The notes beneath the pieces were generated by a model, which made no database searches, had not been told where the DNA came from, and saw nothing but the letters and a program-made list of their open reading frames with translations. Below are positions 3,093 through 17,467 of a stretch of DNA of 20,000 nucleotides, piece by piece (positions within the stretch are counted from its first letter, which is position 1; the number at the start of each line of letters is the position of its first letter). Origin of the DNA: Chiloscyllium plagiosum (Eukaryota); the NCBI RefSeq assembly GCF_004010195.1, contig NC_057754.1:2051139-2071138 (forward strand), in the 5' to 3' direction. The position numbers and the translations under genes are program-made.

Positions 3093-4134
3093 TGTATGTG
3101 CCTGATGTGGCTTACCGGGAGGTGAAGGAAGCTTTAAAAATGTCAGAAGTGTAAACACGTTTTGACCCAAGCTAACTAGTGCGATGTCTTGCCTTATAGA
3201 GGGTTGGCGCTGAACTGTCACAATGGAGTGGAAATGACTATTGCATTCCCATTGAGATCACTAATGAAGATGGAGGAGAAGTATGCCCAAGTGGAAACCT
3301 CCATTTTTGATCTGTATATGGGAATACTGACAGAGGCAGCAACATGCCTGTAGAGATAGGCACTGGCTCCATCAGCCTACTTGTATGAAATCAGATATTG
3401 ACAGTCAGAGAAGCACAGCAATACAGATGGTTTGTCAAGGTTACCACTACCAGGAATTAAGGAGGTACTTTTCCCTGGAAGACAAGGCACTCGTGTCAGT
3501 GAGTCAGGTGCAGAATGCTACCCGGAATGATCCAATCTCATGGACTCAGTCCTGAGAGGAAGGACTTTTCATAGAAACTGCCCAGAGTTACACCTTTACC
3601 TGTCCAAGAGGTGGGAATTGTCCACATCAGTGTTTAATGTGGGGATTGAAGGTTATATCCATTCACCATGAAGAAGATGATGCTGGAACATGTGCACCAA
3701 AGGCACCCTGGTATGGTGCAAATGACAGAAGTAGCCAGGAGCACCATTTGATGGCCGAATGTGAATGTTTGAGGAAAAAGAAGGGTCATGTGAATCCTGT
3801 GTACTAGTAAGGAAGGTGCTGCCATTGTTGACCCTTCACCCATGGGAGTGGCCTCAATCACTGTGCCAGCAGATTTATGTTGATTTCGCAGCAGCAGTAG
3901 AGGGAGGGGTGTTCCTAGCTGTTGTGGATGGCCACTCCAGGTAACCCAAGCTGGCTGTCATGAAGCCACTATCATCAGCAGCAACGATAGACTGACCAGG
4001 TGAAAGATTTGCCAGATTCAGGAACCTCAAACAAACGTGACCAACAATGGTCCACACGTTATGGTGCAAGAATTCAGGGAGTAGCTGGAAAATCACAGAG
4101 GCGTCATGTGAGATTGGCTGTGTATCACTTTGTG

Positions 4135-4344
4135 GAGAAAGTGAGGTCTGCAGATGCTGGAGATCAGAGCTGGAAATGTGTTGCTGGAAAAGCGCAGCAG
4201 GTCAGGCAGCATCCAAGGAGCAGGAGAATCGACGTTTCGGGCATAAGCCCTTCCTGAAGAAGGGCTTATGCCCGAAACGTCGATTCTCCTGCTCCTTGGA
4301 TGCTGCCTGACCTGCTGCGCTTTTCCAGCAACACATTTCCAGCT
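4135..4344. mobile_element. Short non-coding Penelope-type palindromic insertion (family A, copy 1) carrying an HHR motif
   Basis: Perfect 86-bp inverted repeat (4168-4253 / 4259-4344) with a 33-nt unpaired tail (4135-4167). Flanked by the direct repeat GCTGTGTATCACTTTGTG (4117-4134 / 4342-4359). Removing it restores the integrase frame. Confidence 0.9.
4251..4285 (+). ncRNA. Minimal type I hammerhead ribozyme motif (family A)
   Basis: CTGAAGA (4254-4260), A, stem II GGGC-TTAT-GCCC, GAAA (4274-4277), CGTC (GUC cleavage triplet). This matches the minimal PLE-associated HHR architecture. Stem I is short or truncated. Confidence 0.75.
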
Positions 4345-5166
4345 GTGTATCACTTTGTGACAAACAGCCAGGCGGAGAGATTTACACAAAGCTTCATGTC
4401 GGCCTTAAAGGCCTCACTAGGGGAGGGTTCACTAGATCAGCAACTCAACAAATTCCTCAGTATGTACCACATGCGACAACCCAGTGCACGCCACCGTCAC
4501 TTATGTTCAACTGCCAGCTGAGGGCGATGTTTGATGCAACTGGAAAAGGCCAGAGAGATGGTAAAGTGGAATCAAGAAGGACAGTTGACCAGAAGCGCAG
4601 GAACCTCACTGTCCAGAGTCTTTTAAAGAGGTGAGACTGTATTAGTCTGGAATTATACTTTTGTGGAAAAGTGGATCCCAGCAATAGTGGTGGCTCAAAC
4701 ATGACCGTTGTCATTTTCACTAGAGACGAGGGATGAACTGGCCTGGAAGAAACAAACAGACCAGCTGGCTTCTGCACCTCACCAAGGTGGGGAACATCCC
4801 TCAGAATAGATGGAACCAATGGTGTCGACCAAGTCATGTGTCTCCAAGCCAGAGTTGGCTGCATCCAGGGAGGAGACAATAGCATCACAGGGGAACAACA
4901 CCAAATCAGAGAGGGACATACCTGCAACATACCAAGAGCTTCCAGAAGCCCAGGAGTGTGTACTTAGAAAAGGTTCCTGAGAAGAGGCAACAGTCTTTGA
5001 GGAATCGCTATTCCCATGAGAGACTGACCATGTCTGTAAACTGTGGAAGGATTGTTTTCTTTTTTCATTTTTTTTGTGAATATTCCTGATGTATATATGT
5101 TCGCTGCAATGTTCATATAATAGTTATGATTGTTGGGTGTATAATCAGTAAAAGGGTTAATGGAAA

Positions 5167-9309: not shown

Positions 9310-11513
9310 GATTTAGATGGAGAGGAATTTGTTAAGTGTGTACAAGACAATTTTCTGATTCGGTATGTGAATGTACCTACTAGAGAAGATGCAAAATTTG
9401 ACCTACTCTTGGGAAATAAGGCAGGGCAGGTGACTGAGGTGTCAGTGGGGGAGCACTTTGGGGCCAGCGACCATAATTCTATTAGATTTAAAATAGTGAT
9501 GGAAAAGGATAGATCAGATCTAAAAGTTGAAGTTCTAAATTGGAGAAAGGCCAATTTTGACGGTATTAGGCATGAACTTTCGAAAGCTGATTGGGGGGAA
9601 ATGTTCACAGGTAAAGGGACGGCTGGAAAATGGGAAGCCTTCAGAAATGAGATAACGAGAATCCAGAGAAAGTATATTCCTGTCAGGGTGAAAGGGAAGG
9701 CGGGGAGGTATAGGCAATGCTGGATGACTAAAGGTATTGAGGGGTTGGTTAAGAAAAAGAAGGAAGCATATGTCAGGTATAGATAGGATAGATCGAGTGA
9801 ATACTTAGAAGAGTATAAAGGAAGTAGGAGTATACTTAAGTGGGAAATCAGGAGGGCAAAAAGGGGACATGCGATACCTTTGGCAAATAGAATTAAGGAA
9901 AATCCAAAGGGTTTTTGCAAATACATTAAGGACAAAAGGGTAACTAGGGAGAGAATAGAGCCCTTCAAAGATCAGCAAGACGGCCTTTGTGTGGAATCGC
10001 AGAAAATGGGGGAGATACTAAATGAGTAATTTGCATCAGTATTTACTGTGGAAAAGGATGTGGAAGTTATAGAGTATAAGGAAATAGATGATGACATCTT
10101 GCAAAGTGTCCAGATTACAGAGGAGGAACTGCGGGATGTCTTGAAATGGTTAAAGGTGGATAAATCCCCAGGGCCTGATCAGGTGTACCTGAAAACTCTG
10201 TGGGAAGCTAGAGAAGTGATTGCTGGGCCCCTTGCTGAGATATTTGTATCATTGATAGTCACAGGTGAGGTTCAGAAGACTGGAGGTTGGCAAATATGGT
10301 GCCATTATTTAAGAAGAGTGGTAAGGACAAGCCAGGGAACTATAGACCGGTGAGCCTGACCTCGGTGGTGGGCAAGTTGTTGGAGGAAATCCTGAGGGAC
10401 AGGATGTACATGTATTTGGGAAGGCAAGGACTGATTAGGGATAGTCAACATGGCTTTGTGCATGGGAAATCATGTCTCACAAACTTGATTGAGTTTTTTG
10501 AAGAAGTATCAAAGAAGATTGATGAGGGCAGAGCTGTAGATGTGATCTGCATGGACTTCAGTAAGGCGTTCGACAAGGTTCCCCATGGGAGACTGATTAG
10601 CAAGGTTAGACCTCATGGAATACAGGGAGAACTAGCCATTCAGATACAGAACTTGCTCAAAGGTAGAAATCAGAGGGTGGTGGTGGAAGGTTGTTTTTCA
10701 GACTGGAGGCCTGTGACCAGTGGAGTGCCACTAGGATCTGTGTGGATGCTGGGTCCTCTACTTTTTGTCATTTACATAAATGATTTGGATGCGAGCATAA
10801 GAGATACAGTTAGTAAGTTTGCAGATGACACCAAAATTGGAGGTGTAATGGACAGCGAAGAGGGTTACCTCAGATTACAACAGGATCTTGACCAGATGGG
10901 CCAATGGGCTGAGAAGTGGCAGATGGAGTTTAATTTAGATAAATGCGAGGTGCTGCATTTTGGGAAAGCAAATCAGAGCAGGACTTATACACTTAATGGG
11001 AAGGTCCTGGGGAGTGTTGCTGAACAAAGAGATCTTGGAGTGCAGGTTCATAGCTCCTTGAAAGTGGAGTGACAGGTCAATAGGATAGTGAAGAAGGCGT
11101 TTGGTAAGCTTTCTTTTATTGGTCAGAGTATTGAGTACAGGAGTTGGGAGATAATGTTGCGGCTGTACAGGATGTTGGTTAGGCCACTGTTGGAATATTG
11201 TGTGCAATTCTGGTCTCCTTCCTATCGGAAAGATATTGTGAAACTTGAAAGGGTTCAGAAACGATTTGCAAGGATGTTGCCAGGTTTGGAGGATTTGAGC
11301 TACAGGGAGAGGCTGAACAAGCTGTTTTCCCTGGAGCATCAGAGGCTGAGGGGTGACCATATAGAGGTTTACAAAATTAGGAGGGGCATGGCTAGGGTAA
11401 ATAGACAAAGTCTTTTCTCTGGGGTCGGGGAGTCCAGAACTAGAGGGCATAGGTTTAGGGTGAGAGGGGAAAGCCACAAAAGAGACCTAAGGGGCAACTA
11501 TTTCACGCAGAGG
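9310..11513 (+). pseudogene. CR1 ORF2 (partial APE endonuclease plus reverse transcriptase), disrupted
   Basis: 'PTREDAKFDLLL', 'GASDHNSIRF', 'KSPGPD', 'PGNYRPVSLTS', 'QHGF', 'DFSKAFDKVPH', 'SGVP.GS..LGPLLF', 'FADDTK' and 'LERVQKRFARM'. Broken by stops and frameshifts (~9790, 10027, ~10270, 11070). Confidence 0.95.
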
Positions 11514-16429: not shown

Positions 16430-16563
16430 GGAGAAAGTGAGGTCTGCAGATGCTGGAGATCAAAGTTGAAACTTTATTGCTGGAACAGCACAGCAGGTCA
16501 GGCAGCATCCAGGGAACAGGAGATTCGACGTTTCGGGCACAGGCCCTTCTTCAGGGCCTGACC
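16430..16563 (-). mobile_element. Family A short element, copy 3 (one full arm plus a vestigial inverted arm), nested in the PLE GIY-YIG domain
   Basis: Shares GAGAAAGTGAGGTCTGCAGATGCTGGAGATCA...CAGCAGGTCAGGCAGCATCC with copy 1. TSD TGCATGGA (16422-16429 / 16564-16571). Confidence 0.9.
16522..16556 (-). ncRNA. Minimal hammerhead ribozyme motif (family A)
   Basis: The minus strand reads CTGAAGA-A-GGGC-CTGT-GCCC-GAAA-CGTC. The core is intact, and stem II is identical to copy 1 while the loop differs (CTGT vs TTAT). Confidence 0.75.
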
Positions 16564-17306
16564 TGCATGGAATTTTGTAGATGACGTTGGTTTTGTCCAT
16601 GGATTGTACTGGGTCTTTTAAGTTTGTTAGTTTTTGTTTGAGAGTATTGGTGGGTTTGTGTGCTACTAGGATTCTGAGGGGTCTTAGTAATCTGGCTGTC
16701 ATTTCTGAGACTTCTTTGATGTATGGTAAGGTGGTTAGGGTTTCTGGCTGTGTTAGGTCTGCTAATCGTGGTTTGTTCTTGAGGAATCTGCGGACTGTAT
16801 TTTTTCAGTATCTGTTCTTCTTGAATACGTTGTATAGGTGGTTCTCCTCTGTTTTCCGAAGTTCGTCTGTGCTGCAGTGTGTGGTGGCTCGTTGGAATAG
16901 TGTTCTGAAACAGCTTTGTTTGTGTGTATTGGGATGGTTGCTAGTGTAGTTAAGTATTTGGTCAGTGTTTGTCGGTTTTCTGTATACGCAGGTTTGTAGT
17001 TCTCCGTTGTCCTTTCTTTCGACTGTGACGTCCAGGAATGCGAGTTTGTTGTCAGTTTCTTCCTCCTTGGTGAACTTTATGCCTGTGAGGGTGTTGTTGA
17101 TGATGTTAAATGTCTCTTCTATCTTGTTTCGTTTTGTGTTGGCAAAGGTGTCATCTACGTAGCGGACCCAGATTTTTGGTTTGATGGTTGGTAGGGCTGT
17201 TTGTTCTAGTCTTTGCATTACCGCTTCTGCTATGAATCCTGATAGCGGAGATCCCTGCGTATACTTGCGTATAAAACAACTTTTCAAGAAGAACGGATAC
17301 TCAAAA

Positions 17307-17467
17307 AATTCTGTATCCAGACAGCTAAGTTCCCCTGTTTCCCACTCCTCCTGACCTTCTGAATGAGCCTACCATGGGGAACCTTATCAAATGCCTTGCT
17401 AAAGTCCATATACACCCATATCCACAGCTCGACCCTCATCAACTTTTCTAGTCACATCCTCAAAGAA
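17307..17467 (-). mobile_element. Internal CR1 RT fragment captured at the PLE inversion junction
   Basis: The minus strand translates to 'FFEDVTRKVDEGRAVD..VYMDFSKAFDKVPHGRLIQKVRRSGKQGNLAVWIQN', homologous to 10494-10652. Confidence 0.9.

Follow-up and report, generated by a model that had tools for sequence, protein, structure and literature searches.

The window analysed here, a stretch of 20,000 nucleotides (nt) of Chiloscyllium plagiosum DNA (NCBI RefSeq assembly GCF_004010195.1, contig NC_057754.1, positions 2,051,139 to 2,071,138, forward strand), carries a palindromic insert of 207 bases at 4135-4341 with a hammerhead ribozyme (HHR) motif at its centre. We regard this insert, with considerable confidence, as a dead double copy, with extreme 5' truncation, of the 3' end of a Penelope-like element (PLE) of the endonuclease-bearing type, likely made in one insertion event primed at both DNA ends. 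In the repeat search of the window the inverted arms were 89 nt long (4165-4253 and 4259-4347), 99% complementary and 5 nt apart, and over 86 nt (4168-4253 and 4259-4344) they were perfect. The centre between them is CTGAA (4254-4258), a 33-nt extension for which the right arm has no counterpart lies outside the left arm, and the whole is flanked by a direct repeat, GCTGTGTATCACTTTGTG, with 18/18 identity (Table 1). The predicted RNA fold of 4135-4341 was an 82-bp hairpin with CUGAA as the loop. Its energy was -188.2 kcal/mol compared with -68.2 ± 4.4 kcal/mol for 200 shuffles (z = -27.2), none of which was equally stable, indicating a palindrome far above chance.

The arms, the 5-nt centre, the one-sided extension, the 18-bp direct repeat and the hammerhead motif had all been described in the original prediction, made from the letters alone, and the sequence and the repeat search agree with it on each. 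The 5 nt that had been called a spacer do exist and form the inner end of the right arm, which is the longer one. The 3-nt overlap between the right repeat copy and the arm end is likewise real: GCT at 4342-4344 is the start of the repeat copy and also extends the family sequence ...CAGCT, so the true target site duplication (TSD) is 15-18 bp. An intact core was expected on one strand only, and the minus-strand CUGANGA box is indeed broken, reading CTTCAGGA-A-GGGC.

Family positions were counted from the C of CTGAAGA (= 0). The left arm of the window is the reverse complement of the full family 3' end, with the tail of 33-35 nt at its end included; the right arm ends at ...CAGC(T) without the tail. 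The window copy belongs to the commonest class of its sister copies, with a tail-less right arm from -3 to +90, a tailed left arm from +5 to +124, an overlap of TTC and a TSD of 15 bp plus 3 ambiguous bases.

Table 1. Features of the palindromic insert and its flanks (positions in the window)
Feature	Positions	Strand	Remarks
Left TSD copy, GCTGTGTATCACTTTGTG	4117-4134		18/18 identical to 4342-4359; the last G may be the final base of the element tail
Tail	4135-4167	-	33-35-nt 3'-terminal extension of the minus-strand arm; family about +91 to +124; same ...CAGC/TCTGATCTCCAGCATCTGCAGACCTCACTTTCTCC end in sister copies
Left arm proper	4168-4253	-	Family +90 to +5; cut off within the CUGANGA box, no intact core; family coordinates from natural copies
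TTC microhomology of 3 nt (inversion junction)	4251-4253		Common to the inner ends of both arms; read from the sequence
Right arm	4254-4341	+	Family 0 (-3 with TTC) to +87 (up to +90 with GCT 4342-4344); tail-less
Minimal hammerhead motif	4254-4281	+	CUGAAGA, extra A, helix II GGGC/GCCC, loop UUAU, GAAA, C-G-U-C; no helix III or loop 3; predicted cut after C4281
Right TSD copy	4342-4359		Repeat match to 4117-4134

Independent support for the left insert junction came from one contig of a public run, which bridged it and covered 3996-4151. Among the contigs listed from two DNA-like runs the left junction was covered, and none bridged an empty site or the right junction. Of 15 listed joints of contigs aligned to the window, 8 ended at 4251 and 12 lay within 4251-4256, echoing the junction hot spot of the family at -3 to +2.

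The size of the family was determined by searching the genome (3.56 Gb, 101,977 contigs) with exact words and reversed-pattern controls. A 27-mer anchor in the 3' end occurred 84,102 times and a 36-mer running from CTGAAGA onward and spanning the motif 28,555 times, with no occurrence of either reversed control. A 21-mer in the end of the open reading frame (ORF) occurred 4,968 times and a 29-mer in the thumb of the reverse transcriptase (RT) 493 times, so exact-word copy counts dropped steadily toward the 5' end. When the first 30 loci were aligned by eye, the full family 3' end read ...ACATTT(T/C)CAGC followed by TCTGATCTCCAGCATCTGCAGACCTCACTTTCTCC, after which unrelated flanks began.

In long copies the motif is preceded by about 230 nt of C/T-rich sequence and then by the ORF end ...EEERLIFRLGTLQPQGMNSDFSSFLISPPP. 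Translation of natural copies gave, in order, ...GVAMGTRMGPSYACLFVGY...FLRYIDD...YYKPTDSHSYLDYTSSHP...IPFSQFLRLRRICS...CNRRRCNTC...IIYCIRCSRCGLLYIGETGRLLAERFREH...VAQHFNSPSH...LIFRLGTLQPQGMN, and RT motifs were thus found in ORFs upstream of the same 3' end. In one locus (L070:1348-2358) a single frame runs from the thumb through CNRRRCNTC to IIYCIRCSRCGLLYIGETG...LIFRLGTLQPQGMN / IIYCIRCSRCGLLYIGETGRLLAERFREH...LIFRLGTLQPQGMN, that is, a C-terminal GIY-YIG endonuclease (EN) shares the ORF with the RT thumb. The arms and this ORF are continuous: of the 30 loci drawn with the RT-thumb 29-mer, 23 had the motif on the same strand, 574-1,472 nt farther downstream, the spacing from endonuclease motif to HHR was exactly 263 nt in four loci (L064, L070, L085 and L092), and L022/L035 and L024/L036 likewise join the ORF end to the motif. 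Pfam models gave E values of 0.0025-0.0048 (17-18 bits) for RVT_1 and 2.2e-4 (21.9 bits) for GIY-YIG on the parent ORFs. A genome search with the GIY-YIG model returned one weak match among the 150 scored of 14,403 candidates.

A search of 5.8 billion proteins found 174 homologues at E <= 1e-3, the best at 2e-92. Those listed were 592-1,097 amino acids (aa) long and carried precomputed PF00078, and a subset including P0013 and P0017 also carried PF01541; the sole close named homologue among them was an uncharacterised Chiloscyllium punctatum protein. In L070, L081 and L091 the GIY-YIG motif is preceded by CNRRRCNTC, a CX4CX2C linker, which is the feature given for Neptune/Nematis-type PLEs in PMC8557442, and by this linker the family is provisionally placed with that type. 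The family also stood at very high contig depth in runs X1, X4 and X6, which have three organism codes, and it is therefore common to related species. In the literature, supplements aside, no paper was found on this shark family or on the cluster of its ends at -4.

Several other copies were noted. One of L072 (C1:56237413-56240441) and L069 has a tandemly expanded coding segment between thumb and endonuclease, with QDRTPLVLTRTEPHWSSPGQNPTGPH repeated about six times, and the other has the endonuclease motif word five times at 114-nt spacing. A 151-aa N-terminal stretch of the related named protein gave 150 matches with open frames of up to 1,253 aa. Their loci held 1,138-1,319 N of 3,453 in the three that were counted, and arm matches there were only scattered. 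The copies L180-L199 belong to this related PLE, 82-95% identical to the Chiloscyllium punctatum protein over 151 aa, and many of them have stop-free frames of 900-1,250 aa, from which it appears that PLEs may still be active in this genome.

Sister insertions were sampled at the first 100 places of the anchor 27-mer on contig 1; since the anchor lies 3' of the motif, arm starts are unbiased. Arms were annotated by BLAST against two natural copies, which gave 158 arms. Head-to-head pairs numbered 41 and tail-to-tail pairs 2, the latter both with arms of very different age, and adjacent direct pairs were absent among the sampled short arms. The 3' ends of the 106 arms with an exact anchor were bimodal, with 60 at +84 to +96 and 46 at +119 to +124. 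Exactly one arm carried the tail of about 35 nt in 35 of the 41 pairs. Both arms could be assigned to a class in 37 pairs, which divided 1 / 35 / 1, compared with 9.25 / 18.5 / 9.25 expected under independent choice (P = 6e-8). In 34 of the 41 pairs at least one arm ended at -6 to +2. At the junctions, 24 pairs overlapped by 1-5 nt (most commonly 3 nt, 10 pairs), 3 were blunt and 14 had filler.

TSD lengths taken as exact matches in 39 pairs ranged from 3 to 18 bp with a mode of 15 (14 cases), and 27 of the 39 lay within 12-18 bp. The short values came mostly from older copies, and the control, in which the right boundary was moved by 60 nt, gave 3-7. Partner arms had a median identity of 98.2% compared with 95.6% for non-partners, were identical in 8/36 pairs compared with 21/392 random pairings, and agreed in 146/160 comparisons at polymorphic sites, with 14 discordances compared with 54.3 expected at random pairing. 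The insert had been called young, which holds in a relative sense only, as 8 of 36 sampled pairs likewise have 100% identical arms. The exact 35-nt central junction of the window occurred 737 times genome-wide. Three sampled copies of it had the tail on either arm, and each event therefore makes the junction anew instead of copying a master palindrome.

In some pairs (for example L132, C1:1211203-1211333, and L136, C1:1320016-1320137) one arm consisted of the tail alone, 30-41 nt long, and in L025/L151 a seemingly solo arm was preceded upstream by about 23 nt of inverted tail. A simple scan of 43 tail-less solo arms found such very short partners in 2.

In the window the left arm starts at the distal, tailed family 3' end and the right arm at the proximal, tail-less one. 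On the two-end-primed reading, a dimeric RT-EN would have cut both strands with a stagger of about 15 bp, with complementary DNA (cDNA) synthesis starting from one 3'-OH near +124 and from the other near +90. Of the two cDNAs, one would then have reached the usual stop at -3 and the other would have halted at +5; a join at the TTC/GAA microhomology, close to the ribozyme hairpin, and filling-in would have completed the insert. This is reminiscent of LINE-1 twin priming, in which a second primer anneals internally, inverts the 5' segment and is joined by microhomology. In both accounts, second priming from the other DNA end gives an inverted segment joined by microhomology; here, in contrast, both primers would start at the same specific 3' region, yielding a near-palindrome.

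The insert is an ordinary footprint of a known kind. In the account of PMC8557442, PLEs are heavily truncated at the 5' end, where an inverted copy, itself 5'-truncated, adjoins them; a tail of 30-40 bp is often confined to one end, and HHRs occur in the pseudo-long terminal repeats (pLTRs). In PMC3846280, Pen2a_Av of Adineta vaga is described with two pLTRs and an inverted pLTR, a 31-bp tail on one inverted pLTR and a 9-bp TSD, and with palindromes at the inverted junction for which self-priming is proposed. Compared with such insertion units of endonuclease-bearing PLEs, as these sources present them, the copies here share the head-to-head inverted 3'/pLTR copies, a 33-35-nt tail on one arm, the junction palindrome or overlap, the TSD, the hammerhead in the repeated region, and an ORF with RT and C-terminal GIY-YIG in long copies. 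The window insert differs in being a miniature with no ORF and no direct pLTR, its arms being 88 and 120 nt long; the TSD mode is 15 bp compared with the 8-10 bp quoted for A. vaga, and copies are very numerous, with 84,102 ends or more.

The nearest experimental system is the purified Anolis Poseidon protein PAc, which, as described in PMC11167929, cleaves and extends both strands and starts RT at two internal sites bracketing the tail. Likewise, the shark family has discrete 3' ends of two kinds, +90 and +124, some 34 nt from each other, and its products, too, are compatible with two-end priming. PAc comes from another PLE clade than the family here with its CX4CX2C linker, and its start use was equal on the strands in vitro, compared with one tailed arm in 35/41 pairs here.

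The best surviving alternative, to which we give a low probability, is one-ended priming followed by snap-back: a cDNA started at a single nick would fold back at a short palindrome close to the ribozyme hairpin to copy itself, and resolution by the endonuclease would leave the tail on one side. Self-priming, as proposed in PMC3846280, is here combined with the "EN-mediated resolution" suggested in PMC8557442. Junctions do cluster in or beside the palindromic helix II region, with 1-5-nt overlaps in 24/41 pairs, partner arms are nearly identical, as expected of a self-copy, and PMC3846280 favours palindromes at inverted junctions as signs of self-priming. However, in 14 of the 35 one-tail pairs the centrally shorter arm was tailed and the longer arm tail-less; the tail is absent from the supposed template in these 14 pairs and self-copy therefore fails there. 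The tail-less ends, moreover, form a discrete class at +84 to +96 (60/106 arms) that recurs in 43 solo arms with no fold-back partner, and therefore look like a genuine second start site, as reported in vitro in PMC11167929. Snap-back on a sense template would also yield tail-to-tail arrangements, a point made in PMC3846280.

Some points weigh against two-end priming of a PLE 3' end as well. The mechanism is inferred and not observed directly. The in-vitro work concerns a Poseidon-clade lizard element (PMC11167929), compared with a Neptune/Nematis-type linker here, and its start sites were used equally on both strands, so that the paper alone leaves the strict one-tail rule unexplained; this rule is explained by neither two-end priming nor snap-back. 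Since 76 of the 158 sampled arms were solo, two-ended priming is not obligatory. The tables of the family rest on BLAST boundaries good to about ±2 nt. As for the parent element, the Pfam matches fall under the curated cut-offs (RVT_1 17-18 compared with 29.6 bits, GIY-YIG 21.9 compared with 22.6), and three other, shorter ORF pieces gave no Pfam match. No full-length copy of the exact family was seen and its 5' part was not recovered, and the intact ORFs of 900-1,250 aa, found with the related protein, sit in loci that are largely N.

The hammerhead motif of the right arm consists of CTGAAGA (4254-4260), A (4261), GGGC (4262-4265), TTAT (4266-4269), GCCC (4270-4273), GAAA (4274-4277) and CGTC (4278-4281). 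The CUGANGA and GAAA boxes thus flank a helix II hairpin at 4254-4277, A4261 is an extra base, G4262 pairs with C4273, and GAAA-CG-UC follows at 4274-4281. According to PMC4209133, the minimal HHR of PLEs has no helix III, a palindromic 15.2-16.2, an extra base after A9 and a G10.1-C11.1 pair, and the window motif fits these four published features of the metazoan PLE minimal hammerhead. Copies of the family vary at N7 (A/T/G) and in loop II (TTAT, TAAT, TCAT, CTGT, TTTT). A second family in the sampled DNA kept the boxes with a different, still complementary helix II, GUUACC/GGUGAC, in 4 instances found with a regular expression that presupposes the boxes. On these sequence comparisons, the hammerhead motif is a genuine feature of the family.

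Further likenesses to the published minimal HHRs are the unpaired nucleotide between A9 and G10.1, the palindromic C15.2-G16.2 without loop 3, by which helix III can form only between two copies, and a short, poorly defined helix I. Helix II, in contrast, has 4 bp here and 7-8 bp in the Schistosoma examples, and the window copy has lost the 5' strand of helix I upstream of -3, with its motif lying inside a perfect hairpin. PMC4209133 (Cervera and de la Pena 2014) describes such minimal HHRs as inactive when single and weakly active as dimers, and it mentions such motifs paired on opposite strands and explains single ones by truncation of PLEs. A helix I of 4-5 bp is lacking: the window allows only C-G and U-A (...UUC before the core, GAUUC after the cut site), and in long copies 3 of 5 pairs form (CAUUC with GAUUC), so 2-3 pairs are possible overall. 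Since PMC4209133 notes a helix I of 2 bp in D. virilis, the short helix I weakens the hammerhead kinship without excluding it.

No Rfam match to a hammerhead model was obtained: the gathering-level search of the whole 20-kb window returned no match, the 13 matches at E <= 10 for 4050-4450 included no hammerhead, and neither did the 3 matches at E <= 10 for three long copies (5,049 nt in total). The hammerhead at this locus is probably an inactive sequence relic, a prediction based on the near absence of a helix I partner and on the burial of the motif in the 82-bp hairpin. The motif was carried into the insert because it is located 88-123 nt from the 3' end of the element. In 60 arms, core and flanks were 95-100% uniform, the exceptions being CpG sites, a single position of loop II and three subfamily sites. 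Decay at CpG sites of the core affected C11.1 in 10/60, G12 in 7/60 (plus one G-to-C) and G16.2 in 8/60, as expected of dead copies. Conservation of the CUGANGA and GAAA boxes above background had been suggested as a check; the core was kept no better than the flanks in these arms, but the family is too young for the comparison to be decisive.

Ribozyme cutting was also considered from the side of RNA. PMC11167929 reports that ribozyme mutants insert normally and, in its account, no RNA-seq reads end at the cut site. Raw single-cell polyA data (X19) contained 1,599 family reads on both strands, of which 93% continued into unrelated flank, and these look like passive co-transcription. There was no pile-up of read starts or ends and none at the cut site, in a library type unsuited to mapping cuts or a start at -4. 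A step in read depth at -4 to 0 mirrored genomic copy number. Run X20 yielded no aligned read, and among the listed records that contain the sequence none is registered as RNA.

The 5' ends of the 106 arms were not spread evenly: 41 lay at -8 to -1 (30 of them at -5 to -3), 22 at 0 to +9, 7 at +10 to +27, 4 at +28 to +31, 4 at +32 to +58, and 28 further upstream, some reaching beyond -300. Altogether 63/106 arms start within -8 to +9, with the pile-up 3-5 nt upstream of the ribozyme and not at the cut site. Near the predicted cut, at +28 to +31, the 4 ends compare with 0.98 expected (nominal P = 0.018), a weak excess at most.

These ends bear on the reading of the insert as a non-autonomous, ribozyme-defined unit, retrozyme-like or SINE-like (short interspersed nuclear element), whose RNA is processed by the hammerhead. 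We consider this very unlikely. Short units vastly exceed coding copies (84,102 anchors compared with 493 RT-thumb words), the arm starts at -8 to +9 in 63/106, 30 of them at -5 to -3, suggest a discrete short template, arm ends at +28 to +31 exceed expectation, and a preprint proposes that vertebrate retrozymes derive from PLE pLTRs (bioRxiv 10.64898/2026.07.22.740005). However, direct adjacent pairs and tandem arrays were absent from the sample, the ends lie at -4 and +90/+124 and not at the cut site at +28, and the excess at +28 to +31 amounts to 4 arms with boundaries of ±2 nt. The RNA reads described above likewise argue against it, as does the window copy with its one intact core and no helix I partner. 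Retrozymes are described in the same preprint as tandem repeats thought to yield circular RNAs through ribozyme cuts. The window insert resembles the animal non-LTR (non-long terminal repeat) retrozymes in being non-coding, hammerhead-bearing and PLE-related, and differs as a single inverted pair with ends away from the cut site. Of the two identities offered in the original prediction, an extremely truncated PLE therefore fits, whereas a retrozyme-like element does not: a tandem array is lacking, only a single core is intact, and nothing points to units that end where the ribozyme would cut.

That the insert is a miniature inverted-repeat transposable element (MITE), two independent nested insertions or a local inverted duplication is hardly conceivable: perfect arms and a flanking direct repeat give a superficial resemblance to a MITE, but the 33-nt tail stands at only one side and makes the termini asymmetric, copies differ in their inner and outer ends, and the arms represent the 3' terminus of an RT/EN element, while independent insertions should give head-to-head and tail-to-tail pairs equally (41 and 2 were observed) and would not share one TSD. 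Fixed TSD length and symmetric ends across copies, the marks by which a MITE was to be recognised, were looked for, and the sister TSDs were mostly 12-18 bp, with no single short length, and the termini asymmetric. A PLE-derived retro-insertion, as predicted, is supported instead by arms that form the 3' terminus of a family whose sequence is physically linked to an RT/GIY-YIG ORF, by the asymmetric termini with their one-sided tail, by the varying inner junctions and by the TSD span of 12-18 bp.

The cluster of arm 5' ends may say something more about the template. By eye, TCATTCC with its A at -4 is initiator-like and a TATA-like word lies about 30 nt upstream. In 25 arms with ATTC at -4 to -1 the base at -5 was C in 10, G in 9 (3 of them junction-derived), T in 5 and A in 1, so a cap-derived extra G at -5 was not significant. 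A discrete RNA 5' end would explain the cluster at -8 to +9, as a hard RT stop or a template-switch site equally would. We suggest only tentatively, and think it would sooner fail than hold, that the 95-130-nt units are complete copies of an RNA starting 3-5 nt upstream of the hammerhead and not random truncations, the start lying at the initiator-like TCATTCC about 30 nt downstream of the TATA-like GATAAAAG on the opposite strand. If this were true, every promoter-bearing pLTR fragment would be a SINE-like source, the one-tail rule would record a dimeric RT-EN with two fixed cDNA start sites, one per DNA end, and the hammerhead would serve as a marker for the 5' boundary of the copied module and leave it uncut.

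The locus itself is of little weight, being one dead stub among tens of thousands within other repeat-derived DNA. The family, in turn, is a large natural record of PLE insertion products. Its one-tail rule (35/41), its TSD mode of 15 bp and its sharp 5' stop at -5 to -3 bear on the unsettled mechanism of PLE integration and on the question whether PLE hammerheads cut in vivo. Furthermore, perfect 200-bp palindromes at such a copy number are an assembly hazard and a possible source of hairpin RNA.

Other repeat-derived features were noted in the window. The host DNA on both sides of the insert (3765-4116 and 4360-4521, plus strand) translates, by eye, like a decayed retroviral-type integrase core (...VDFAAAVEGGVFLAVVDGHSR ... 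TNSQAERFTQSF...; ...TNSQAERF...). Pfam searches with the integrase-like fragments around the insert gave only chance-level DUF (domain of unknown function) matches at E <= 1. A second copy of the same 3' end lies at 16430-16554 on the minus strand; it is solo and tailed, spans 0 to +124 and has CTGT in loop II. It has 7 extra bases before CTGAAGA and is flanked by an imperfect duplication of 10-11 bp (TCCATGCAGG / TCCATGCAAGG). By eye, this copy splits a frame, ...NVIYKIPC on one side and ...KECHKNYVGQTERK on the other, that resembles the GIY-YIG motif of a different PLE. The split frame adjoins a weak RT ORF piece at 16805-17368 (minus strand; RVT_1 E = 5.9e-4), which probably belongs to another PLE family. 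A clear RT ORF piece at 10269-11072 (plus strand; RVT_1 E = 8e-32) is part of a retroelement.

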